Source: Psammoneis japonica (taxonomy: Eukaryota). Taken from it: a stretch of DNA of 21,920 bases. Below the pieces are notes generated by a model that saw only the letters and a list, made by a program, of their open reading frames with translations, was not told where the DNA came from and searched no databases. How positions within the stretch are numbered: the first letter of the stretch is position 1; each line of letters opens with the position of its first letter. Positions 1,852 through 21,920 of this stretch are shown here, one piece after another. The stretch spans positions 124,001 to 145,920 of the forward strand of contig QPGO01000186.1 of NCBI GenBank assembly GCA_008632985.1, written 5' to 3'. Made by a program: the position numbers and the translations under genes.

Positions 1852-3897
1852 TCATTCCATGACGAGTGGCTCCCCGCCACCGCCATTTTGTTCCCGAACA
1901 TCATTGATTAGATCAGTATCTACTTTCAATACACCCTTTTCATCTTTGTAAAGAAGGTTCACGAATTGGTATCCAATACTTAAGTCCACAAAATCATATA
2001 TCTTTTGAGCGTAGACGTCTGAGGCACTCACGTTTGAGACACCATTCAAACTCACAAGAATCTGATTGAATTGAAGACTTTCCCTCACTTTAGCGTAGTT
2101 GTTGAGCGATCTCGGCCACGAGCCTTTGCTTCGTCGAATGAGTTTCCTAGCCCTAGGAGTAAGAAGAGGAGAGGTTTCATCAAGAACATGACGAGCCAAC
2201 CAAACTCGTTTGAAAAAAGGGTGCTCGCTTGCCTCAATCAGAAGCTTCGAGAAAATTCTCTTGTTCACAAGCTTTGAAGCTGGGTCCTCGTCCACAGCTT
2301 GATGATCCTTTCCCTTCCCCAGAAAATATGACAGGCCGCTGCCATGAAGAGTGGAGTCCATGAAATTCAACGCGGCACCCGAGTCAGATCCATTCTCGCT
2401 ATTTGAAAATGTCGAGGCAGAGCTGTTCCCCAAGAAACGTTGCCTATCAGTGTTTAGAGCGTCTCGCAGAATAGGATCCGCATCGTCGGCGTCAATGTTT
2501 GCCACACAGTTGAGCGACGCGTCCATGATTTCACCCCCAACTTCCCCAAAGAGGCGATTTACGATACGAAACTCCAACACTGGTAAAGGTAATTTCTGTG
2601 GCAACCCGCTGTCTTCGTCGTTGTTGTCCGCCTCGGCGAATTCATCTTCTACACCACTGCCAAAGCGAATAACGACGGGGTCGCTAAAAAGAACTTGAGC
2701 ATGGCTCTGGATACGGAGAACCTTTCCAAAGAGAATAGCGCCACAGAAACCAGAATATAGAACACCAACGAACGACTCCAACGAGCAAATGATCGTGATA
2801 AAGGCGCAATTCGAAGGATTCGAGTTTTCGTGACCAAGAGCTGGATACGTGCTTCCGTATCCCCTGCAGAGTTCAAAGAGATCGAGAAAATCATCATTGA
2901 GGAACCTTCTTACAAATAAGCATTTTAATATAGATTCCAAAACCAAAGCGAGAACTTACACCGTACTGAAAGTTGTCCAACTCAAAGCAAAGGCATCAGC
3001 AAATTTCGATTTGCCTCCTTGGTTGAATTCTAAGCCTCCGACTCGAACACACTGAGGGTCCATGTCACCAGCAATAATTATGAAACCGGCAAAAATGAAG
3101 GTCAGCCCGAAAAAGACAATGCAACTTATCAGAAACAGAAAGACAAAGTTGACCCTGAACATCCAGTGTAAGTACATTGCAAGGTTTCGCTTCCTGTTCT
3201 CGCCTTCAGCACGAGTGCCCGCGCCGCAACAAATAATACGCCGGTACATTCTCTTTCGCCAGTTGGAATCTCTCTACGGAAACGATAACAGAGATATGAA
3301 CAGAAAGAAATAAAATGAAAAATGATAAACAGAAAGTCATGTCAATTCTTGGCGTAAACCGCAGACTTACACGTCTTGTAGCGGCTAGCCTATACTGCTT
3401 GACTCGACCCTCTTCCAGAGACATGGACTCATCTTGTCTATGGAAACTTGCCTCTAGATTCGCAGGTCGTTCACAGCAGCATACTCGACGGAATAAGTTT
3501 CGCCATCGGTTCATGAATCTCTCTCGAGACCCCATAGCTTGAGCTTGATTCTCGCATCGCACCTGATACCGAGTGATCACAGGCAGAGTGAGTTGAATTG
3601 AATACACAACTTATAATTGACACAAATTGAAAACACAACATCATAAGTATTTAGAATCCCCTTGTTACTTTCGTCACTGGATTTCAACAATTCCGACGTT
3701 GCATAGGGACGTGACAGCGGCTCACGACTTACAAACACGGCTTGGCATCGATCACCCTCTTCATCGGCGGCAGGTGTAGTATCAACCGCCGGTTCTTCAT
3801 CAGCGATACTCTCTGGACGGGAAATACTACGAGCCCGAAGACCACTGGTCGCTCTGGTACCAATGTGCTCTTCCGTGTTGATGTCGTTGTCGACCAT
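1852..3897 (-). CDS. Inward-rectifier (Kir-type) potassium channel, 4 exons: 3897-3733, 3562-3371, 3273-2960, 2863-1852 (560 aa)
   Basis: Three GTAAGT...AG introns (3732-3563, 3370-3274, 2959-2864) join in frame to 1683 nt. Splicing builds the selectivity filter WTTFSTV-GYG. M1 and M2 helices and Kir motifs AQVLFSDPVVI, LEFRIVN and HVLDETSPL are present. An upstream ATG at 3996 is an alternative start. Confidence 0.9.
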
Positions 3898-4041
3898 GGT
3901 GCGGCATACGTACGTACATCGCAACTCGCAACTTTTTGTGATCTTTGGGACGGGCCGACGGTTCGTTTTGAAGTCTTGGTCTGACCATGCCACCATGCGG
4001 TCTCAGTGATTTTTCGCCATTGCTTGCCGGCACTGCTGCAG

Positions 4042-4061
4042 TAGCTACTCTAGAGTAGCTA
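4042..4061. promoter_or_regulatory. Perfect 20-bp palindrome TAGCTACTCTAGAGTAGCTA upstream of the Kir gene
   Basis: The palindrome is read directly. Its core ACTCTAGAGT also occurs at 1634-1643. A regulatory role is inference only. Confidence 0.4.
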
Positions 4062-4869
4062 GTCGACAGTGCGTGCCAGAGTTGTGCAAACAGCAGCGAA
4101 GTTATTTTTGTCATTGAAAAATCTCGACGCTGAAAATGCTTGTCGAAAATCGGCTTTCGACAGCCACTAAAACAGTTGCAGTGACTGACGAAAGCCTTTT
4201 TTCGACATCTTCGGTTGCAAGAGAGCTGCAGAGCAAGAGCAAAGTCCTGAAACATTGGGTTCCCTGGCAATTTGTGTGATGTTCATGGAGGCACCTCTCA
4301 TCAACGGAAACTGGCAAATGATTTGAAAGATTTTTGCACGCTTTTGGCGTGCATCTTCAGGCAAATCCGAGGATTGAAATGCCCGGCAACTCCAACAACA
4401 CATTGAACCCCAGCTCCATCCACCCCCCGTCCCTCACTCAAAACAAAAACAAGAAATTGATGCACATGCCATGGCTGTTGACAATGGTGAACCACAACCC
4501 AATTCGCCCAAAAGGAAACAAACTCATCTCCACAAGAAAGCCGTCAAGTCCTGCAAGAAGTGCAGGCAACCTCCTGAAGAGATCGTGGTTCACACCGGGG
4601 CTCCGTCCGCCAGCTGAGCCCAAAGAACCAGAAGAAGCCATCACCACACTGGTGCTTTGAAGCAATGCGGCATGAATGTCCTCAAGAGAATGAACCAAGG
4701 TCATTGAAAATGACATCTTGCTCAGCAAAGCTCTTCATGGTGATGACCACAAAGGCGTCATCAACGTGAACAAAGCTCAGAGGCATGCCACAGCTTGTGC
4801 ATTTTTGAGCTTCTTGACATGCCTCCTGAGGAGGAATGGGATGGTCAGAATGGAGCAATGCTCACAATT

Positions 4870-5866: not shown

Positions 5867-6020
5867 ATGGCTGGGGCCAACTCAAACAAAGGTTTCATTG
5901 CTCAAATCATTGGTCCTGCACTGGACATTGAATTCCCATCAGGAGACTTGCCTCCTGTTTTGAGTGCAACAAAATTGAGCTGGAACACGGCAGCACAACC
6001 ATTGTGAGGTGGCTGCAACA
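5867..6020 (+). pseudogene. atpB: 5' fragment of plastid ATP synthase beta subunit (probable nuclear plastid DNA insertion, NUPT)
   Basis: Translates MAGANSNKGFIAQIIGPALDIEFPSGDLPPVLSATK and, after a 1-nt shift, IELEHGSTTIV. This matches the AtpB N-terminal pattern G.I.QIIGPVLDIEFP.G.LP.I..AIKI..IVEVQQ. Frameshifted and truncated. Confidence 0.85.
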
Positions 6021-8844: not shown

Positions 8845-9092
8845 CACTTCATGATGCAAGCTCTCCATCAAAGAAACAAGTGTCCTGAGAGTCTTCTTGG
8901 TCATGCAATCAGCTGGCATTTGATTGGCGGGCAATGCTCAATCAGTGCATTGCCTCTGATGGCTTGGTCATGGACAAGAAACATCTGATGTTCAATGCAC
9001 TGGTTCGCTGCCCAGAGCTCCTCTTTCATCAGTCTCTGGGAGGATTGCAGCCTTGTTGTCTTGTCAGATGGCATTCCGTGTTGCATCACACC
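8845..9092 (-). mobile_element. Ty1/Copia (CoDi-like) remnant, 3' half of RNase H
   Basis: Minus strand reads GCDATRNAI*QDNKAAILPETD, then FLVHDQAIRGNALIEHCP and MPADCMTK in shifted frames. This matches Copia RNase H (YQDNKSAILLE...IEYCPT..M.AD..TKPL). Confidence 0.85.
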
Positions 9093-9459
9093 TGCACTAT
9101 GCTCGAAGAACGAGTGTAAACGAAAGTAGAATGGTGTACGAAAAGTGGAAATTATAAGATTAAATTTTGCTCTGTGATTTTTGGTTTCTCCGAACGAGTT
9201 CTCAATGGCCTAAAGCTTCTGTACTGCTTCTACAGACAAAAGGCCTTTCGGAGAATATATTCGTGACAACAGATTGTCCGGATACGATTGCTATTGACAC
9301 GTAAGATGTCAACATCGTCAATCGATCGTATTTGCAATTCTCGACATCCGATCAACTCTGTGTGATCGTTCTGTCCTTTGTACGCATCCACGACTGTGGT
9401 ACGATTGACATGTGAATAATATATAATCATAAATATGTATATAACAGTCGCATACTGCA
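9093..9459 (-). repeat. 3' LTR of the non-autonomous Gypsy element (367 bp)
   Basis: 360/367 identical to 13464-13830. Terminal inverted repeat TGCACTATGC...GCATACTGCA. Confidence 0.95.
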
Positions 9460-9471
9460 TTCGCCTCCCTA
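9460..9471 (-). other. Polypurine tract of the non-autonomous Gypsy element
   Basis: Minus strand AGGGAGGCGAA directly precedes the TG of the 3' LTR. It resembles the PPT of the second Gypsy (GGGGAAGCGAG). Confidence 0.8.
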
Positions 9472-12400
9472 ATTGCACATTAGAGTCATTTGTAAGTGGA
9501 TTATTCGACGGACATCGACAGTGTCAATAATGTCTCCACTTTCACTGTATTGTGCCATTAGCAATAACTGTTGTTGTTTTGTATAGGCAATATAGGGCCG
9601 TTCCAATTTCCGAATGTCTTTTGAGAGTGACATTGTTTGTTTCTCACTTAACATGTATATATATAGTATTACGTCGAGCATTCTCATTGACGTTCTTGTT
9701 GACATGAACACAAGGACTAATTGTCCTGGAGCAAGTGTTTTTCCTGACATCGATTGTACATAGCATCGTGCCCAGCACTTAATGTACGCTCTTAATTATG
9801 GCGTTCACTTGCTTGCTTCTTGTGGATTTCATGCAGTTTGGCGGGCTTGCTTTACATGCCATGTTGCTCTGCTGCACTGCCACGTTTCACAAGCAACAAC
9901 AAACGATGGTCAAAGACATTGTGACCATTTCGTCTTGACAATCAATCCTGTGATGGTCATGAATTCCATTGTGGATTTTTTTTTTTTGCACTTCAACCAT
10001 CTATCAGTTGGATTTTAATCGTCATTTGGACGTTTCTTTCTGACACACCGGTGTCATTTTGTCATTCCGAAGGCACTGGTTTCGTGCACCAAGTGGACAA
10101 ATGTCCATTTTTCTTTTCTTTTTCTAGATCTTTGGCACATCTCGTGTGTCGACATGATGCACATTTTAATGTCTTGCCTCGTACATTGTACAACACAACC
10201 GCACGGGTGTTGTGAGATTGTCTTTTGCCAGTGTGAAGTGGGTGCGTATAATGTGCACCAATCTGTCACTGTTTTTTCCTAAATCGCCCTTCAAAAAGGC
10301 GATTTTATCCTTGTGACATGAGCATTTTTCGATCTCGCTCGCCTCCACGAAAAGTGTTCGTATGATGTGTCGCGTCCGACAATTTGGAGGGAATGTCTTC
10401 ATCCCGTTTTAACGGCAGGACATTGTCGCAGGATTCAATTTTCTGTGGCAAGTCGGCTGATCGCGTCTGTCGCGACGATGTTCGCCTTGCCCTCGTTGTG
10501 TTCTAATTCGGGACTGAAGTTGTCAACGTGTGACTTTGTCCGTTGTGTCTTGTGATCCATGTGTGCATAAATCTGTTGGCCAAACAGCATGTTTCGGAAT
10601 TTTGTGAGTGTTTTCACCATGGACAGAAGTTCTTTTTTCCGTTGTGACGCACAACATTGAAATCCGTGCATGACAACAACACAGTTTTTGATTTGATGCA
10701 CTCCACATTTTCGGAGACTTTTCGTTCCGCACTTGTGCTTTTGCCGTTTGACCTTTGTTGAGGTGAATTTGGCTGGCATTGCACAGGAGATCGTTGAGAC
10801 TGCATGTCTCGACAACAGCAACGCATGACAACGAGATGTCGCAGTGTTCTTTGCGTTTTTCTCGTGTTGCGATTGCTTGAATCGCCTCCATTTTCTTTGC
10901 AATCGATTGCATGTCGTTGCGTGTGGAAGTCTTGATAGTTCATTTCAAGTTAAACAGTGAAGGACTTTTGTTGTCAACCTTCTAAGCGACTGTTCTGGTC
11001 GTTTGAATGCCGCGTTGAGCTGTTGCTTGTGCAGGTGACATTTTGAAGTTACTTTTGTCAGGCACAAACGATCACATGTGGTCATTCTGACAACTTCAAA
11101 CCTGTCATGAGTTCACTCAAGTGTTGTGCAAAAACATCTGGGGCTCTGTGGATTCTCATTGGAAGTCCACAGTGCTCATTTTCTCCCCACGGCATGATTT
11201 TCGTGTGAGCACGACGTGTGCTTTTTTTATTTGACATGGTGGCATTCCATGTTTGAATCAAATGGATCACACACATGAAACGTTCTTGCTTCAATGGCAT
11301 TTCCTGAATGTTGGGCAAAGGACACACCACCTGTGTGAACCTCACACTGAGCTTCTGAGTGTCGGATGCGGTCGAACTCGACCTGTTTTCTTCAGACAAT
11401 GAGTCTCAGAGCGACTCATTCAGAGCAACTTCATTCTCAAGACTTCAATCTTTCACAATGGGTCAAACTCCTTTTGATTGGATGCCTCCAAAGACTGTGA
11501 CAGGAGAAGGTTCTCACGCGTCGTGGAATCGCGTCAGATTTTCCACGATGAGATCCACTGATGCTTCCCATGCATTCGTCTGAGGAACTTTTCAAAACGA
11601 TTTCAACCTCTTAAGAAGAAGATTGAGTTGGTTGTGTTCATTTGGGTTAGATGCATCGCCGCAGTTGTCACTTGATTGAGATCGATGGCGTGACAATGTG
11701 AGTCGAGGACCATTGGTTCCATCATCAACTCTGTTCACGGCGTCACATTTTTCAATGTGATCGGTTTTCAGCTTGAAAACATCGGCATCGAAGAGTGTGT
11801 GAACATTCTTCATAAGGTAATTGCTTCTTCCCATTAGATTTCTTCATTTGCGTAGTCCAATGTGACTTGCAGGACTGGACATTAAGTCGCGTCCCATGAT
11901 CACATCATTCGAACCTGAAGAAAATTTGGTGTTTTCAACATTCACTGTTTGCATGTCAGCATGCCTTAAATTTTCGCACAGTGAGAACTGAATTCGGTGT
12001 TTACTATCAGTCGTAAAGAGCTCACCCTTGGTTTCCCAAGTTTTTGGTGGCGGATTCTTGTGTTCTCAACTTTCGCACGAATTTGCGCAAAATTGTGGTT
12101 GACGATGTTCCGTTATCGACAGGAACACGTAGATGCTTTTTTTTTTTTTTTCTCTCCTTTCCCAAGGAAGTGTTCATACAAATGATGACTCCTGGACTAG
12201 TGTGAATTATTTCTGCCTTTTTTCTAGGCTTCCTAACATCCAGCAAAGCATGTAATTCGTGAATAGACCAAAATTATTCTTCGGATTCAGTCTGGATCAT
12301 CCGATCAAATTGGCATTTTTCTTCACTGAGGGTATCAGAATCTGATTCTTTGCCCTTATGCTCTTTTTCTTTGTTCAAGGAACTCGCTTTGAGCATTTTT

Positions 12401-13463
12401 TGAACCGCCTGATCAATCATGACGTTCATCTCTTTTTTTGCGAGCGGCATTTTCGTTGTCGCGACGCGACCGCGTGCGATTGCCATTTGAACGGCGCATT
12501 TTTGGGTCTCTTTCAGAGTCACCCTTGCACTCTTTTGCTAGTTCATTTTTAGAACAGCTTCAATCCGTGATGTAGGTATTCTTTTTTCAAAGATAAGACC
12601 TTGCATTCACTTTGGATTGTTCTGGTACCACACAGGAGACCATTTTTGGAACCAAATTTGGAACCTTTTTTATTTTGGAACCAACTGCGCTATCAGAGCC
12701 TGAGTTGATATGTATTTTCGTCACGGACGTCATGAACGACCTTTAGATGACTCAAAACTTAATCAGCTCATCAAGGATGAGTTGCAATAGTTGATTGTTT
12801 TGGACAGTAGACTGATGCTGCCATCCTTGCGGTGCGAGTGATGGCCAATAGCTCACGGCTCGGTTTCCCGCTAGATTCAACATAGAATCGATTGAAGGGT
12901 CGTGTGGACGCTCTTCATTGACCTCTTGGGTCGAATGGGCACTCTCTTGCTGCTGAGAGCCTTGGGTTTCTTCAGATCATCTCGAAAATAATGATTCTGA
13001 TTCTGAAGTGCAATTCTTGGAGGACATGAGATAAGAGACTCTTAAGGTACTTTCCAATGGTTCCATCTTGCTCTTGGACTCGAGGCTCGTCGATTCGGTC
13101 TCTAAAAACTCTCCAATAGTCTCTCCTTGCATGCCAGACGTATTTCTCGGACCTGATCGACTCAAGACTTGAAATTCTACCCAACCATGACTTGGTGTGG
13201 ATATTTCGACAATGCTGTGCTCTTGTAGAGTCCTTGGTCCTGAGACACTTGGAATGGATCGTATTAGAACGAATCTTGTCATTTGCTAGACGAAAAACAG
13301 CGTTCCATCTTGAGGTGCTGCTCGGATTGAGCTTCTTCCGCTCGGAAATCGATTCCAGCAGAACTGATGCGATTCGTTCCTGTTTATAGAAGAATTTACA
13401 AAGGCACATTAGTTAAAATTTTCATTTTCCGTGCTTTTTACCTTCTGTGGTGTGTATACACAA

Positions 13464-13830
13464 TGCACTGTGCTCGAAGAACGAGTGTAAACGAAAGTAG
13501 AATAGTGTACGAAAAGTGGAAATTATAAGATTAAATTTTGCTCTGTGATTTTTGGTTTCTCCGAACGAGTTCTCAATGGCCTAAAGCTTCTGTACTGCTT
13601 CTACAGACAAAAGGCCTTTCGGAGAATATATTCGTGACAACAGATTGTCCGGATACGATTGCTATTGACACGTAAGATGTCAACATCGTCAATCGATCGT
13701 ATTTGCAATTCTCGACATCCGATCAACTCTGTGTGATCGTTCTGTCCTTTGTACGCATCCACGACTGTGGTACGATTGACATATAAATAACATATAATCA
13801 TAAATATGTGTGTAACAGTCGCATACTGCA
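13464..13830 (-). repeat. 5' LTR of the non-autonomous Gypsy element (367 bp)
   Basis: Direct repeat of 9093-9459 with 7 substitutions and no indels, followed by CACC. Confidence 0.95.
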
Positions 13831-13834
13831 CACC

Positions 13835-15430: not shown

Positions 15431-16393
15431 TTATTTCTTTTTCTTCGGATCAGGCTTGTTGTTCAGGTAGATGTACCATTGAAGAGCGGTTGCAACCGCG
15501 ACCCAACCACAGGTAGGCAAAAGGTAGTAACCTGCCACTTTATCCAAGTCGTAGAACAAGTACGCACTGCTCAATAGGCATGCAAAGAACAGGGTGATTA
15601 CGGCCGCGCCACGACCGGGACATTGCAGACCAAAGAACACTTTATTCCAAGTGTCACCCAATGCCAGATGGGAGCAGTACACGAACAGCACCCCCAATGG
15701 AAGTGACGTCGTCCCGTCGATTTTTGACGTGCCATATTTTAAGATCCTTGACACACCACATAACTGTGTGGGTTTACTGATCAAGAGCCACATGATCGGG
15801 AAGACGTATCCTGGTGGATTCCACCATGGTTTCTTAAGTTGAGAATACCATTGGCTATCTCCCGGGATGACGTCCGGTGCGAGAACTTGGTTGGTAGCGG
15901 CAGAAAGCCCTCCATCGATGAACGATCCGAAGAAGGAGCTAGCGAAGATGATAAGGAATGCTGCCACAAGCTGTGTCAAGGGCAAGTTGAAGACAGACGG
16001 TATCGAATCGGGATACTTGTCAGACAATGCCACACTTCCCACTAAGGTCCCTAACATCACCACCGCCTCCAATACAGCGCTGATCGCAAGCTTGGCGAAT
16101 AGACTTGGATCGGAATCAGCACATCCCCCACCACGTAGTGTTTCTACCAATATCAAAGTCGAAGACGGTAAATGACTTGTTAGTCCATTGACATTGGGAA
16201 CATCGATTTCTTTGTCGATACTGTGACGACGGGGATGAAGGCTGTGACGTTGTTGCTGTTGGTGAAGCGTAACGGTGGCCCAACCGTTCGGGTTCGGAAC
16301 TGCATCGACACCACCACCCGCGAGTCCCAACAACAACAAAAAAACACCACCACAAGAAGTGATATACAAAGCGAGACGCGTTCCAATCTTCAT
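15431..16393 (-). CDS. tspO: TspO/MBR family protein with signal peptide and N-terminal extension (320 aa)
   Basis: Motifs WYSQLKKPWWNPPGYVFPIMW, WNKVFFG and LLPTCGWVAVATALQWYIYLNN. Likely start MKIGTRL at 16393 (ORF open to 16462), with a hydrophobic signal peptide, a TLRGG motif and C-terminal KKKK. Confidence 0.9.
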   Translation of the reverse strand: MKIGTRLALYITSCGGVFLLLLGLAGGGVDAVPNPNGWATVTLHQQQQRHSLHPRRHSIDKEIDVPNVNGLTSHLPSSTLILVETLRGGGCADSDPSLFAKLAISAVLEAVVMLGTLVGSVALSDKYPDSIPSVFNLPLTQLVAAFLIIFASSFFGSFIDGGLSAATNQVLAPDVIPGDSQWYSQLKKPWWNPPGYVFPIMWLLISKPTQLCGVSRILKYGTSKIDGTTSLPLGVLFVYCSHLALGDTWNKVFFGLQCPGRGAAVITLFFACLLSSAYLFYDLDKVAGYYLLPTCGWVAVATALQWYIYLNNKPDPKKKK

Positions 16394-16827
16394 GGCGATC
16401 CGATTCAAGTTCAGTACCGGTAGAAATGTTGTTGTTGTTTCTATTTCAATTTCACGGTTCATTTTTTTAGGGTTTTTTAGGGAAACCTTTTATTTACGGT
16501 ATCCATACTGTACTGTACGGTACTTACGCTGTGTGTGGAGTTCAAGCACGTGCAACGTCACCCAGTGGCGCGGGGGGAGGGCAGACCCAAGATGATCCGC
16601 AGATCGAAGATCCTGGATGTCTCGCCTCTTCTCGCCTGGGACCTGGGACAATCATTATGGTAACATACTGGTAACAAGCCTTGACGCTCCGCCCTTTTCG
16701 ATTCCCTCCTGAAGCAGAAGTACTAGTAGGTCGAAACGAGAAGGTCTGAAGATCGAGGAAGCAAAACGTTAATAGTGTGTAATTCTCTCTTGCATTTGAT
16801 CTGTTGATTCTTCTCTAATTTTCCGCA

Positions 16828-17944
16828 ATGTCGTCAGTGCCTGAAACCATGAAGGTATGTACAGTAGATGAAAGAACAAGCTTGAAGTGTGGTGCACGTT
16901 TTCCTTTTAACTTTCAAATCCACCAAACACCAAACGACTCAATTCCCATCGCAGGCAGTAGTGATTCATGCTACTGGTGATGCTCAATCTCTCAAGGTCA
17001 CGACCGATTATCCGACACCAACTCTCGAGCCCGGCCAGGTCCTGGTCAAGAATGAATTTGCAGGAATTAACTTTATCGACACCTATCACCGCAGTGGACT
17101 GTATCCTCGTAAGTTGCCCTTTATCCTTGGCGTGGACGGTGGTGGCGTTGTTGTTGCGGTAACTCCCGAGGCTGCTGACGTCAAAGTGGGAGATCGTGTT
17201 GCCTACAGCATGGTGGAAACCTATTGCGAATACACGGCGGTGCCGGCATCCAAGCTTGTTCCTGTTCCGGACGATATGGACATGACGGTTGCTGTAGCGT
17301 GCATGGTCCAGGGCTTGACGGCTCACTACCTCACCACGTCGGCTCATGCAAACCTGATTCAAAAAGGAGAATGGTGTCTCATTTACAGTGTTGGTAGTGG
17401 AACTTGTCAGTGGGCCGCTCAAATGGCAAAAGCAAAAGGTTACAAGGTGATTGGAACGTGTTCCAAAGGAAAGGCTGACGCTGTGCGAGCACTGAATTGT
17501 TGCGACGAGCTCATTGTGTTGGAAGAAGTTCAGGGAGCGTCGTATTCGGATTACAGCAGCGTGGATATAGTTGAAAAAGTAATGGAGGTTTCGGGTGGGG
17601 AGGGCGTGAAATGCATTATTGATGGAGTTGGAAAGTCAACGGCCGACGTTTCATTGAGTTGTCTCGCAACAAGGGGCATTTTCATTTCGTTTGGCAACGC
17701 GTCAGGGCCTGTACCTGCCTTTCCAGTGCTAAAACTGGGTGGAAAGTCAGCTTTTGTGACTCGCCCAAAGGCGAGCGATTACACAGCCACGCGTGAAGAA
17801 CTCATGGATCGAGCGCGCGATGTGTTCGGTTGGGTAAAAGACGGAACACTGAAAATTGTGGTGGACCAGGTGTTTGCCTTGGAAGATGCTGTGGATGGTC
17901 ACGTCTATCTGTGCCAAGTGGCGCCAAGTAATAGTATAAAGTAG
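16828..17944 (+). CDS. qor: NADPH:quinone oxidoreductase (zeta-crystallin/MDR family); exons 16828-16854 and 16955-17944; last 10 codons are LTR-derived
   Basis: MSSVPETMK, a 100-nt GTATGT...CAG intron, then AVVIH. Motifs AGINFIDTYHRSGLYP, VQGLTAHYL, DGVGK and FGNASG. Similarity stops at HVYL (17911), where the LTR begins. Confidence 0.9.
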
Positions 17945-18202
17945 CGTTGTAAAATTGACTGTTGCTAATATTGTGAGAAGAAATGAAAGAGATTCGGCTA
18001 CTCCGAAATCTCGTAGAATTAATACTAAGAAACCGCGTAGAAATATAAAGAAACAATCTTTCGAGAGGCATCGAGATGTATCGAGAAAGGAGAAGAGGTT
18101 TCTAGAAAGTGTCATCGTTGACATCCTTTTGACACTTTTGACATCAGGCTGACACCCACGAATGAATATACGAATGAATATAGATGACCGTGATACTCGG
18201 CA
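17912..18202 (-). repeat. 3' LTR of the second Gypsy element (291 bp)
   Basis: Bounded by TGCCAAGT...ACTCGGCA (7/8 inverted repeat). PPT GGGGAAGCGAG at 18203-18213 lies just after the pol stop. Internal tandem CGAATGAATATA x2 at 18159-18182. The partner LTR is outside the window. Confidence 0.8.
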
Positions 18203-18223
18203 CTCGCTTCCCCAATTGAGACG

Positions 18224-20728
18224 TTAGAAGACAGGGTGAAGACGGCGGATATTGATACGTTCAGTGACGTGAGGCGAGCGCTGGATGGTAACGGTTCCAT
18301 TGGTATGGACACGTACGATACGGAAAGGACCATCTTTGGTGTTGAGTTTGCGTTGGATGTCTTTGGTCATAACGAAGACTTGATCGCCGATGTTGTAGTC
18401 GTAAGTAAGACGTTTTGCGTTTTCGCGGAGATTATTGCGTAGGACATCGCGCTTGCGACGGGTATTAATCATTTTCCAGTTCGCAAGATAAGTAGCAGAA
18501 ATGACCATGTCTCGACCGAAGACAATTTGTCCGGGAGACGACATAAGGGCAGTATGGTAGGTACTGCGCAAGGCCCATGCAACGGATTGCAAAATTCCAT
18601 GAATTGTGTCTTCATCATGATCGCGAGAAGGGAGATCCATCGCACGGAGAGAATCGGCTATTACTTGATGAATACGTTCAACGAACGCGTTGGCTTGAGG
18701 ATTCTTGATTGTTGTAGGTTTCGGTTTAACACCATAACTGTAGAGGAGATCTGTAAACTCGGAAGTGAATTCGGAACCGTTGTCATAAATGACAATTTCT
18801 GGTCGCGGATAGCGACAAAACCACTCGCGATCGACGATAAGTGAAATGTCTTCGGACGTTTTGAACTTATAGTTCGCGAGTTCGACCCAACGGGTTGCGA
18901 CATCAATAATTGAAACGGCTCTGATTTTGCGATCGACACCATTTTTGTCGGCACACGTCCAGGGACCGAAAAGATCGACTTGAGTTGCCTGCCAAGGTTT
19001 ATAAGTAGTATCTGGAAGAGGTAATTCGCCATAGTTTGCCGTAGCACGCTTGGATTTGGAACACGTGCGGCACTTACGGACAAAAGTGCGGACTTTCGTC
19101 TGCATGTCGCGAATGTAAAAATGTGAAGCCAAAGTTTGGCAGGTGCGATTGGCACCAGGGTGGCAGAGAGTTTCATGGTGCCACCGTAGAACTGCAGGAA
19201 AAAGCGTTGGAGGGAGGACAATCTTGTTCTTGTAAAGGACAATCTGTTTTCCATTGAACAGTTCGGCTGAGCAGGATTCGGACTTGTCGAGTCGTTGCTG
19301 AAGAGCAGAATTTTTTTTCTGATGGTCGGCGACAATGTCGAAAGTAATGGGGAATGTCGAAGGATCGATTTCCAACGAAGTCATTTCCTCGTAATCGCTT
19401 TGATCGACTTGGACAATGGGATGGCGGCTCAAAAAATCAGCCACGACATTCTCATGGCCTGGCAGGCACTCGAAAGAGCAATCGCACTCCTCGAGAAGTA
19501 AACGCCAGCGTTTGACGCGTTCTGACTTGAATTTGTCAAATGCAAGATTTTTGTGATCGGCAAATGGGTGGCATCGATGACCAAAAAGGATGCTTTTGAA
19601 ATTTTCGGTCGTTTCCACGAGCGACAGCAGCTCTTTTTCCATTGTCGTGTAGTTTCGTTGCGCTTGAGACAATTTTCGGCTGTAGAATGCAATTGGCCAT
19701 TCGCCATCATCAAAATCTTGAGCAATCACTGCACCAAGTTGACAATCACTCGCATCCGGATAGATCTTGAAAGGTTGAGAGAAGTCGGGGAATCGGAGGA
19801 GGATTTCGCGCGCCACAATTTTTTTCATCTGATTGAAAGCTTCCGTGTGGACGTCAGTCCACTTGAATTTGACTTTGTCTGATGACAGCGCAGTTAAGGG
19901 CGCAAGAGTGTGGCTGCGTCGGCACCACAATTTCTTGCAATGATTCACGAACCCGATGAAACCACGCAATTGTCGACGGTTTTGAGGGCGAGCGAAGCAA
20001 AGTGAGGGTGGGATTTTCTTTTTCTGAGGCTGAGTGCCTTTTGCAGTCATGGTGCAGCCCAAGCAGTCGACGGTCTTGGCGGCGAGATGGGATTCTTCGA
20101 CATGTGCGTGAAGATTGTTCGCGAGGAGCCGTTGCAAGACGAGTTTGAGTCGTTGACAGTGATGGTTGAAGTTGTTCTTGGCAAAGAGGATGACATTGTC
20201 GATGCAGACTATGATGTCTTCCATGTCATGAAAAATGTCTGTCATGCAAGCTTGAAAAATGTCGCTTGCCGGTTTGATTCCTTGCGGCAGGCGGTTGCAG
20301 CAATGCTTGCCCCACGGCAGGATGATGCCGCAGAGTTTTTTTGACTCGTCGTCAAGCACGAAGTGACAGTAGCCTCGGTTGAGGTCCAAACATGTCGCAT
20401 GGGCAAAGCCGTTCATTTTCCATGCGACGTCGTCGATGACAGGCAGTGGATGTGGATGCCGTTCGAGACACTCGTTGAGTTTCCGTAAATCGGACAAGAA
20501 ATGGATGCCACCGCTTTTCTTCGATCGGAAAAGACAGGATGCGTCCCAAGGAGAGTGAAGTTTGCGCGTGATGACATCGATTTTTTCCAATTCATCCACT
20601 TCTTTGCGAGCCATGGGACACAACGCTTGCGGAACAGTGCAAGCTTTCGCACAGCATGGACGCGATCCTGGTTTCAGGGTCAAATGGACGGGTTTACCGG
20701 GTGCAGCTCCAAGTGTGCCATCGAACAA
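18224..20728 (-). pseudogene. pol: Gypsy pol (RT-RNase H-integrase), open for 834 codons but with a mutated RT active site (CIDN for YIDD)
   Basis: RT motifs LDLNRGY, RLPQG and VCIDN; RNase H DASD..LGAV and EKELL; integrase HHCC finger, VDLFGP, DNGSEF and NPQANAFVER. Confidence 0.93.
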
Positions 20729-20832
20729 TTGCGGGTCGTCCGAAGAGTTCGATGAGTTGGTGCTGTTGATCGTTCAAGGTGTTTGCAGCGTAGAACCATG
20801 TCGCGACAATTGTGCTTGTCGTGCATTGCTCG

Positions 20833-21270
20833 TCATACCTCGAACCTGACGGTTGACGGCATTCTGGAAGAACTTGGGCAATTCAGCATCGCCGGGATGA
20901 ATTGCATTAACTTCGACTTGGTCGAAAGAGCCCTTGGATCGCATGGATAGGGTACATCGTCCCACGTGATTGTTTGATGTCGAAAATCAAAAACGAGTCC
21001 CATTTCTGTGGCGGTTTTTCTTCCGATGACAATGTCGTGTTTTCCTGCGGCTTTGTCTTCCACACAAGCATCGACGGAAACCTTCTTGGACGATGCGAAG
21101 TCTGGGAACTTCAATGTCAGCGTCGCAATCTCGTGTAGATTAACGGCACTGTAACGGCCTTTAACGGGAACGTCATTTACGGATTTTGTGAGGAATCCCG
21201 CGAAGGGCTGAGCGCTTCACAAAATTGCGATTTGCGCCGGATCGAGTAGCAACACGGAACTTGTGCATTC
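20833..21270 (-). pseudogene. Gypsy aspartic protease region, frameshifted
   Basis: LLD(S)GANRNFV at ~21220-21255 needs a 1-nt correction. KHDIVIGRKTATEMGLVFDF..ITWD follows downstream. Confidence 0.75.
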
Positions 21271-21321
21271 CAGAATGAGTGTCAATCATCTGGACACGCG
21301 CTTCCGTGGTAAGATTGTCTT

Positions 21322-21920
21322 CTATTCGGATTCGATNNNNNNNNNNNNNNNNNNNNNNNNNNNNNNNNNNNNNNNNNNNNNATCGTCTGACGCGACGCTA
21401 TCGACATCGTTAGAAGCGGAGCGACTAGCTTTGGAGTCCACATTGTTGTTTTCGACGTTCCGTGTGCGGCTCCGTGTAGGACAGCGGTGTGTCGGCTCGT
21501 TTCGAGAGTTGTTTTGTTGATTCGGCGCATTCCGATTTGCGCGGTTCCGCTCATAATTTTCACGTTCACGACGGATGACATTGCACTCTTGACCGTTCGG
21601 ATGTACAACGCCATGGATTGGACATGTTTGTTCACGATTGTTTTGGTTCCTGTTCCTGGTGCGATTTTGGTCGTTGTTCTGGCCGCGACGCGCATTTCGA
21701 CCGTTGTTGCGTCGATTCCAATTGTTGTTGCGTCTGTTGTTGTCGGTAGACCCTTTGTCACCACGTTGTTCCATACGTCGGAGAGTCTCGTAGTTTGAGC
21801 TTGGTCGTTCAAGTTTAAGTTGCGAAGACGGGCTTTAGTCTGAGTTTCGGCCCATGATCTTGGTCCACATTTTCGAAGGATTACGGATAATTCCGCTTCC
21901 GTGAATGACGGAACTCTTTC
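21322..21920 (-). CDS. gag: Gypsy gag C-terminal part (Asn/Arg-rich, CPIH-x3-H-x5-C knuckle), partial
   Basis: ORF 21322..21774 contains CPIHGVVHPNGQEC and lies upstream of the protease. It spans an N gap. Confidence 0.7.
21337..21381. other. Assembly gap (45 N)
   Basis: Run of N in the sequence. Confidence 1.

Follow-up and report, generated by a model that had tools for sequence, protein, structure and literature searches.

Two Gypsy elements with partly erased TpA

We analyzed a stretch of 21,920 nucleotides (the window) of the diatom Psammoneis japonica, located on contig QPGO01000186.1 (C186) and ending on the right at the contig end. The window carries two minus-strand Gypsy retroelements, the left one belonging to family F and the right one to family R, and in both of them tracts that keep the dinucleotide TpA lie next to tracts that have lost it (Table 1). 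The ratio of observed to expected TpA (o/e) is mostly 0.5 to 0.9 in the genes of the window and 0 to 0.2 in its repeat blocks. As shown below, the loss is a mutation that strikes after insertion, and the sparing follows fixed modules of the element that are on or off in each copy.

The right element has a pol frame of 849 amino acids on the minus strand (18224-20773), in which Pfam identified reverse transcriptase (RT), RNase H, a zinc finger, and the integrase core, and which contains all three peptides quoted in an earlier note on this DNA. That note described TpA and tyrosine as intact in the integrase core and the long terminal repeat (LTR) and as lost rightwards, and this was borne out. 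TpA o/e fell from 0.56-0.80 over 18001-19200 to 0.06-0.19 over 19201-20700. In comparison with sister copies, the best change point lay at 19042/19045, with 1/61 TpA sites mutated on its left versus 62/77 on its right (to 20730; p=1.6e-23), although the change is a short ramp (~19045-19150) rather than a single step. Tyrosine codons numbered 12/307 left of 19150 and 6/541 right of it, as compared to 13 and 30 in a little-mutated comparator copy.

The left element (9093-13830), whose domains were mapped by tblastn, has 367-base LTRs and a 4-base-pair (bp) target-site duplication at 9089-9092 and 13831-13834. The Ty3/Gypsy assignment is based on the pol order RT, RNase H, integrase, which Pfam also found on the natural frames of copies L005 and L125, and on paired LTRs with a target-site duplication. 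The earlier account of this element stood in that the LTRs are spared and pol is depleted; the spared tail, however, ends at ~9680 and not at 9800, and 12000-13460, described as kept, is only partly so (17/69 sites hit). The two LTRs differ at positions 7, 41, 320, 322, 328, 347, and 349, exactly as had been listed, and all seven differences are of the TpA type. That they avoid the LTR center had been read as sparing of the center; the chance probability of this is 0.058, and F LTRs as a family showed no center-edge difference (site permutation p=0.55; site 63 omitted as a subfamily polymorphism), so that chance could account for it.

Table 1. Features of the two Gypsy elements and of the host gene that the right one interrupts.
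Feature	Position in window	Strand	Remarks
3′ LTR, left element	9093-9459	-	nearly spared despite TpA-erased flank (o/e 0.03)
Spared integrase tail	9460-9670	-	spared segment 9098-9670, 4/46 sites mutated; first sustained hit 9679
TpA-hit pol, window copy	9680-11999	-	0.55-1.0 of sites mutated per 200-column bin over 9686-12053
Sharp 3′-side edge of internal island in sister copies	10257-10365		start of integrase zinc finger; hit in window copy
Internal island core, RNase H to zinc finger	10366-10850		spared in 13/23 F copies; 0.89 mutated in window copy
gag/leader, partly spared	12000-13463	-	17/69 sites mutated; 11/26, 5/22, 1/21 falling towards 5′ LTR
5′ LTR, left element	13464-13830	-	nearly spared; segment 13385-13824, 4/35 sites mutated
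Quinone-oxidoreductase-like host gene	16886-17911	+	Pfam ADH_N/ADH_zinc_N; normal TpA; right element interrupts near its end
5-bp target-site duplication, right element	17907-17911		twin adjoins 5′ LTR of copy L002 (contig C126), an end absent from C186
3′ LTR, right element	17912-18202	-	0 TpA sites mutated; pol on minus strand
Spared integrase core and tail	18203-19042	-	Pfam rve, amino acids 593-692 of pol frame
Transition zone, integrase H2C2 zinc finger	19045-19210	-	PF17921, amino acids 521-576; recurrent family R boundary
TpA-hit RNase H and RT	19211-20734	-	TpA o/e 0.06-0.19
Protease/gag part, cut at contig end	20735-21920	-	consensus of low confidence, with 45 N and several deletions of 1-3 bases where TpA sites vary

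Copies of four families

Our counts cover four families, and two further Copia families were located. From 30 loci of family R we aligned 18 near-full and 2 partial copies, omitting fragments and diverged relatives; family F was represented by 23 full copies from 30 loci. The family G3 sample comprised 17 copies out of 20 long matches, of which one was removed because its target sites were mismatched. For the Copia family CA, 16 full copies were obtained from 23 loci and 4 removed (3 with mismatched target sites, 1 with an unresolved end). F and G3 are sister families with a DNA identity of 70-85%. Copies of F and G3 lie mostly within TpA-erased DNA and those of R and CA mostly within normal DNA, which may reflect different insertion preferences or ages.

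One R copy, L002, is chimeric (see below). It was included in the statistics of TG/CA outcome and strand runs, in the per-bin and LTR-pair scoring, in the R correlation of -0.80, and in the module and haplotype comparisons; it was excluded from the CpG/transversion comparison, the change point, the profile fit, the edge positions, the R correlation of -0.70, and the position-matched CpG test.

TpA is mutated after insertion, on both strands

The two outcomes of a mutated TpA, TpG and CpA, were about equally frequent (813/1046 in R and 1591/1685 in F), while CG double hits were rare as compared to expectation (10 vs 212 in R and 36 vs 423 in F). TpA sites differ between the two LTRs of a single insertion, and in two cases the halves of a target-site duplication are set apart by one TpA-type change. 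Thus, the mutation is a post-insertion process on DNA that acts on both strands and needs an intact TpA. Successive hits showed little or no tendency to form strand runs (0.511 vs 0.514; 0.516 vs 0.498, standard deviation 0.0075). Agreement of the outcome between copies had a median of 0.56-0.57, indicating that hits are independent between copies. A>G change was more frequent when the following base was T (0.49) or C (0.41) than when it was G (0.28) or A (0.18); the base preceding the T was without effect. Spill-over to T sites outside TpA (T>C) amounted to 2.9 per kb in hit tracts and 0.8 in spared ones. The autocorrelation of hits up to 400 bases revealed no evident nucleosome-scale periodicity.

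CpG decay follows TpA loss

In the comparison of CpG transitions with transversions, from which 6 diverged or chimeric copies were dropped, private CpG transitions were 5.8-fold more frequent in hit tracts (326/18029, 18.1 per kb) than in spared ones (28/8943, 3.1 per kb). Private transversions, by contrast, did not differ (0.42 vs 0.39 per kb); for CpC/CpT transitions the values were 1.69 per kb in hit and 2.06 in spared tracts. Because neutral variation is equal, the spared tracts are neither younger nor collapsed. The coupling also appeared at matched positions, where CpG was lost at 14/1075 sites in spared copies and 98/1602 in hit copies. CpG loss in hit tracts is 1.8% private and 6% in total, whereas TpA loss affects most sites. 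These data support the view that the mutator follows a local, copy-specific state, and the CpG coupling supports a chromatin-guided mutator, as the earlier note had proposed.

Sparing is modular across copies

The earlier note had further claimed a repeated profile, in which the pol core is hit while the LTRs and the integrase tail are spared. We scored this profile with lenient cut-offs (both LTRs and 3′ tail spared, RT hit) in the 57 testable copies of the four families, leaving aside truncated or barely mutated copies (4 R, 1 F, 1 G3, and 5 CA). Only 9/57 copies fitted it, namely 3/13 in R, 5/22 in F, 0/15 in G3, and 1/7 in CA; as worded, it is not consistent across elements. The window's right copy, which is outside the test, would match the profile if its far LTR were included. 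The reverse pattern, with the 3′ LTR hit and RNase H spared, was found in 7/22 F, 7/15 G3, 1/15 R, and 0/8 CA copies. In the Copia family the spared parts are RNase H and the 3′ LTR (7/8 each) while gag is hit; thus, position and not domain matters.

What recurs instead is a set of fixed modules, each on or off in a given copy: the 3′ LTR with the tail, an internal island that ends at the integrase zinc finger, and the 5′ LTR. Among F copies, 4 spared only the tail, 7 only the island, 6 both, and 6 neither; for G3, the corresponding numbers were 4, 9, 1, and 2. Tail and island tended to exclude each other in G3 (p=0.036), with no such effect in F. Sparing of the modules is all or none, and the F LTRs were bimodal, 17 having a mutated fraction of at most 0.17 and 29 of at least 0.45. 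We rejected the possibility that the state is inherited by subfamily, since copies with identical transversion haplotypes have different states.

The edges of the modules recur in place. In 6/8 tail-spared R copies the inner edge lies at 18954-19140, as in the window. The 3′-side edge of the F island was identical in 7/7 island-only copies: the last hit is at 10256 and the next highly mutable site, 10366, is always spared. The far edge, in contrast, varies across 860 columns (Levene p=0.007). The position homologous to the F island edge is where the fully spared core begins in G3. The edge has neither a special base composition nor a motif in common with the LTR.

A few copies fell outside the common modules: L010 spares integrase without the 3′ LTR, L012 spares RT without integrase, and L032 spares the gag half. 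Two R copies in an inverted join (L015/L016, C68:142204-151618) are both heavily hit, without a spared tract.

The step at ~19150 and the missing end of the right element

Copy L002 (C126:27993-34388) has the left flank of copy L007 (C125), with 0/1500 mismatches. Its right target site is the left one of the window's element, and its 5′ LTR bears the window's two private LTR variants, differing from the window's 3′ LTR by four TpA hits only. Thus, L002 recovers the end of the right element that is missing from the window, namely a mostly spared 5′ LTR within the host gene. The interior of L002 mixes both loci, and the window core agrees with right-anchored L002 at 17/18 doubly mutated sites over 20450-21330. 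C126 is probably a mis-join at the repeat, which connected the right end of the window's element and the host-gene tail to the left flank of L007; a real rearrangement is the alternative. With the missing end matching on another contig and the step recurring in sister copies, the check for a chimera at ~19150 suggested by the earlier note showed that the step is not explained by one.

We also compared the locus with short-read contigs of two runs, none of which crosses the ~19150 step. Run X2 has an empty insertion site of the right element, in which the flank past the 17907-17911 duplication is the continuation, and run X1 apparently has one too; none of the window's private LTR variants were found in run X1. 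The insertion is thus polymorphic, yet its core is ~80% saturated, which hints at very fast mutation. Letters missing from the window consensus beyond 20735 are present in short-read contigs. The deletions at variable TpA sites in 20735-21800 fit a consensus of mixed reads, which could result from paralogue mixing or from ongoing mutation in culture.

A possible mechanism

We consider it probable, judging from the pattern of mutations, that silent, CG-methylated chromatin is where the mutator acts and that on/off sites within the element exclude it, with open neighbors helping. After insertion, a host process would convert TpA to TpG or CpA on either strand, but only inside silenced, CpG-methylated chromatin. 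LTR elements would carry a few fixed sites able to hold chromatin open, at the 3′ LTR and the 5′ LTR, and F and G3 would have an additional one at the junction between RNase H and the integrase zinc finger. Every site would be on or off per copy, as an epiallele, and an open neighborhood would help in the gene-inserting family. From a site that is on, the protected tract in the left family would start sharply and fade over 0.5-2 kb towards the 5′ end of the element, a shape that chromatin downstream of an antisense promoter would give. The scars thus look like a record of the element parts left unsilenced in each copy, and not like one single profile. On this account CpG decay would mark 5-methylcytosine (5mC), protection would be open chromatin, the anchor sites would be promoters, and the mutator may indeed avoid promoter-like DNA, as had been suggested. 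In Phaeodactylum, DNMT5 CG methylation falls mainly on transposable elements (PMC9998398), as do H3K9me/H3K27me3, with active marks peaking at the 5′ ends of genes (PMC4504042); antisense promoters of LTR elements are likewise documented (PMC7264820). It is possible, though rather doubtful, that the TpA mutator naturally records chromatin state copy by copy, fixing silencing permanently in the DNA, and that the shadow in pol, at the RNase H-integrase junction, is that of a bistable antisense promoter, tending to alternate with the 3′ LTR in G3. If this were true, the element would possess a cis-acting means of shielding part of itself from a host DNA-editing defence guided by CG methylation, or of feeding RNA to it.

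Several points weigh against these proposals. The copies were selected by similarity to the query, taking only the best-scoring candidates, and so are those closest to each query. As F and G3 are sister families, the internal island is one evolutionary case seen twice. Two of the five position-matched CpG tests were not significant alone (p=0.088 and 0.071). The G3 island edge was not significantly sharper than the far side (standard deviation 111 vs 188, p=0.39), the island edge does not resemble the LTR of the element itself, and the island contains no conserved antisense open reading frame. Across the Gypsy families, 3′ LTRs were spared no more generally than 5′ LTRs (3 vs 2, 4 vs 2, and 4 vs 5 copies). 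Since 3′ LTRs are not generally favored and some copies (L032) spare the gag half, an antisense polarity is not universal.

As to the enzyme, we tentatively favor an adenine deaminase of the TadA/ADAT type over thymine oxidation or an error-prone polymerase, by analogy and at little short of even confidence. TadA prefers a pyrimidine before its target. In family F, spill-over at non-TpA sites, viewed at the A, was not higher after C than after G (TpG 3.0 vs TpC 3.1 per kb), and spill-over without a pyrimidine bias fits such an enzyme poorly. The preference for TA and TAY does fit a TadA/ADAT-like deaminase, even if the spill-over spectrum does not favor it; the TadA-derived editor ABE8e is described as preferring TA on both strands (PMC9398351).

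Alternative explanations

The main rival, which we regard as unlikely but worth weighing, involves no promoter: silencing would nucleate in gag/RT and in the erased flanks, spread, and fade or stop at a barrier at the integrase zinc finger, the spared tracts being those that it had yet to reach. Consistent with this, gag is spared in just 2/17, 3/22, 0/15, and 1/8 hit copies of the four families, inner edges vary and fade, and the R tail ends at the same domain junction at which the F/G3 island starts. Lightly hit R LTRs, the one group in which this was seen, are also hit more at their edges than in their centers (37/312 vs 7/240, site permutation p=0.011). Spreading has more difficulty with islands in which 0/79 (L042) and 0/41 (L051) sites are mutated while both sides are ~0.7-0.8 saturated, which would require active and lasting protection, and with tail-only copies, which cross the same barrier position. 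That position alone decides, protection leaking from neighboring host genes and the element contributing nothing, is very improbable. Such leakage agrees with the R flanks, where flanking TpA correlated with LTR hits (rho -0.70, n=16; rho -0.80, n=15), with the location of the right element within a gene, and with a weak effect at the F 5′ LTR (rho -0.43). The F 3′ LTR shows no such relation (rho -0.09, n=22): 9/10 spared F 3′ LTRs lie within TpA-erased flanks, and all 4 tail-spared G3 copies have TpA-poor ones (G3 flanks of mostly 300 bases). Gene proximity thus predicts sparing in a single family, R, and the earlier claim of gene-proximal sparing holds there and fails at the F 3′ LTR. The island, which is at least 1.2 kb from any flank and uncorrelated with flank state, refutes position as the sole cause, leaving it as a contributing factor.

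Gene conversion, by which spared tracts would be reset from cDNA or RNA of unmutated copies, appears improbable. Minus-strand cDNAs begin at the 3′ end, so that truncated ones would yield 3′-anchored tracts of variable length, and the youth of such tracts would lower their CpG decay as well. Yet spared tracts hold private transversions and CpC/CpT transitions at a density matching that of hit tracts, and 3′ cDNA would not leave an island inside the element with one edge fixed. Moreover, two private variants occur in both LTRs of the window's right element, the spared 3′ one included, and in none of the other copies tested, and the LTR pairs of L009 and L007 likewise share private variants. The equal density of neutral variants led us to reject conversion as well as collapse, so that this rival is already largely refuted. 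An assembly artefact, arising from joins of mutated with unmutated paralogues or from polishing towards the commonest allele, has slightly less to recommend it even than position alone. Chimeric copies such as L002 do exist, target sites mismatch in 3/16 Copia copies (with one more unresolved) and 1/17 G3 copies, and the window consensus is poor beyond 20735. On the other side, target sites match in 22/22 testable F copies and in 9/13 R copies, two more of the latter differing by one TpA hit; the step recurs in place among copies with matched target sites; spared tracts keep private variants; and the window core matches L002. Hardly credible, finally, is editing of RNA or cDNA before insertion combined with template switching, or selection for an intact integrase or RNase H. 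That the right element of the window still has tyrosine in its integrase would suit it, but strands are equally hit with little or no strand runs, TpA differences exist between the LTRs and between the target sites of a single insertion, and no TpA, whether coding or in an LTR, is lost from the spared tracts of copies that are broken elsewhere.

Relation to known systems

The type of mutator is already known, as it matches the TpA hypermutation that Mettrop et al. (bioRxiv 10.64898/2026.01.13.699255) described for viral DNA integrated in the genome of Bigelowiella natans. That report describes two viral regions in mutation-accumulation lines of the rhizarian, mutated ~1000-fold above background in some lines only, and proposes that the process is a host defence, with an ADAT2-like enzyme as candidate and perhaps an epigenetic trigger. 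The two systems share A:T>G:C change at TpA on both strands (TpG and CpA) in foreign or presumably silent DNA. The targets in Psammoneis are multi-copy LTR elements, with 0.6-0.9 saturation in the most heavily hit copies, unlike the Bigelowiella viral regions; set beside 0.4 transversions per kb, a TpA hit fraction of 0.6-0.9 would agree in magnitude with the Bigelowiella rate. In its available text, the report never mentions diatom, LTR, promoter, or boundary, gives no within-element profile, per-copy states, or link to CpG decay, and merely speculates on epigenetic guidance, so that the rule by which TpA hypermutation chooses its targets is at stake here. In the literature that we searched, which included few subscription journals, we found no paper describing how TpA loss is distributed within an element, and no publication on multi-copy module states, a switchable pol island, or CpG coupling.

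Repeat-induced point mutation (RIP) of ascomycetes changes C:G to T:A at CpA, creating TpA; it targets sequence duplication and is premeiotic, with a RID-type methyltransferase. Both processes are dinucleotide-specific transition hypermutations that act post-insertion, in tracts, and disable repeats. In contrast to RIP, TpA is here lost and not made (6 tyrosine codons vs 30 in the comparator copy), TG and CA both arise from one site, and there are little or no strand-coordinated runs. Although all copies are repeats, an identical sequence can be saturated in one and untouched in another, so that homology alone probably does not set the target. RIP is the comparison named by Mettrop et al. A further comparison is protection of the CpG-island type, along with the DNMT5 methylation of diatom transposable elements (PMC9998398): tracts that are unmethylated or open retain their dinucleotides there, and CpG decay tracks the hit state here. 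Unlike in 5mC decay, the dominant loss is of TpA and not of CpG, CpG decay being a putative sign of methylation.

The antisense promoter of micropia reportedly lies between RNase H and integrase. As compared to LTR elements with antisense promoters, the site proposed here is seen by its mutation shadow alone. Such promoters are listed for the HTLV 3′ LTR, AtRE1, Mdoryco1-1, and Drosophila micropia, with antisense transcription arising in a 3′ LTR or within pol; micropia produces non-coding antisense RNAs of 1.0 and 1.6 kb that are complementary to RT (PMC7264820). Our reading predicts the exact location of a hidden regulatory site in diatom Gypsy elements, at 10257-10365 of the window and its homologues. 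Because the same sequence is hit and spared in one genome, with CpG decay following, guidance by 5mC versus closed chromatin is directly testable. In practical terms, LTR-pair dating and tyrosine-based annotation fail in the Psammoneis japonica genome.

Host genes and other features of the window

The quinone-oxidoreductase-like gene has lost its last residues to the right element; among its 120 best matches listed, the named homologues are all from diatoms. Two further host genes have normal TpA, a TspO/MBR gene (15431-16489, minus strand) and a multi-exon membrane-protein gene (1852-3610, minus strand), for which a Pfam search of one exon gave no match and whose product, from a motif, looks like an inward-rectifier channel. 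Intergenic low-complexity tracts rich in CTAG/AGAG at 1500-1740 and 4040-4070 have an excess of TpA (o/e 1.76 in 1501-1800), and the second directly precedes the start of a TpA-erased block (~4200). Inside this block, a TpA-free fragment (5885-5986) resembles the start of ATP synthase beta (best match chloroplastic, E=0.0003) and is possibly organelle-derived DNA that was likewise mutated.

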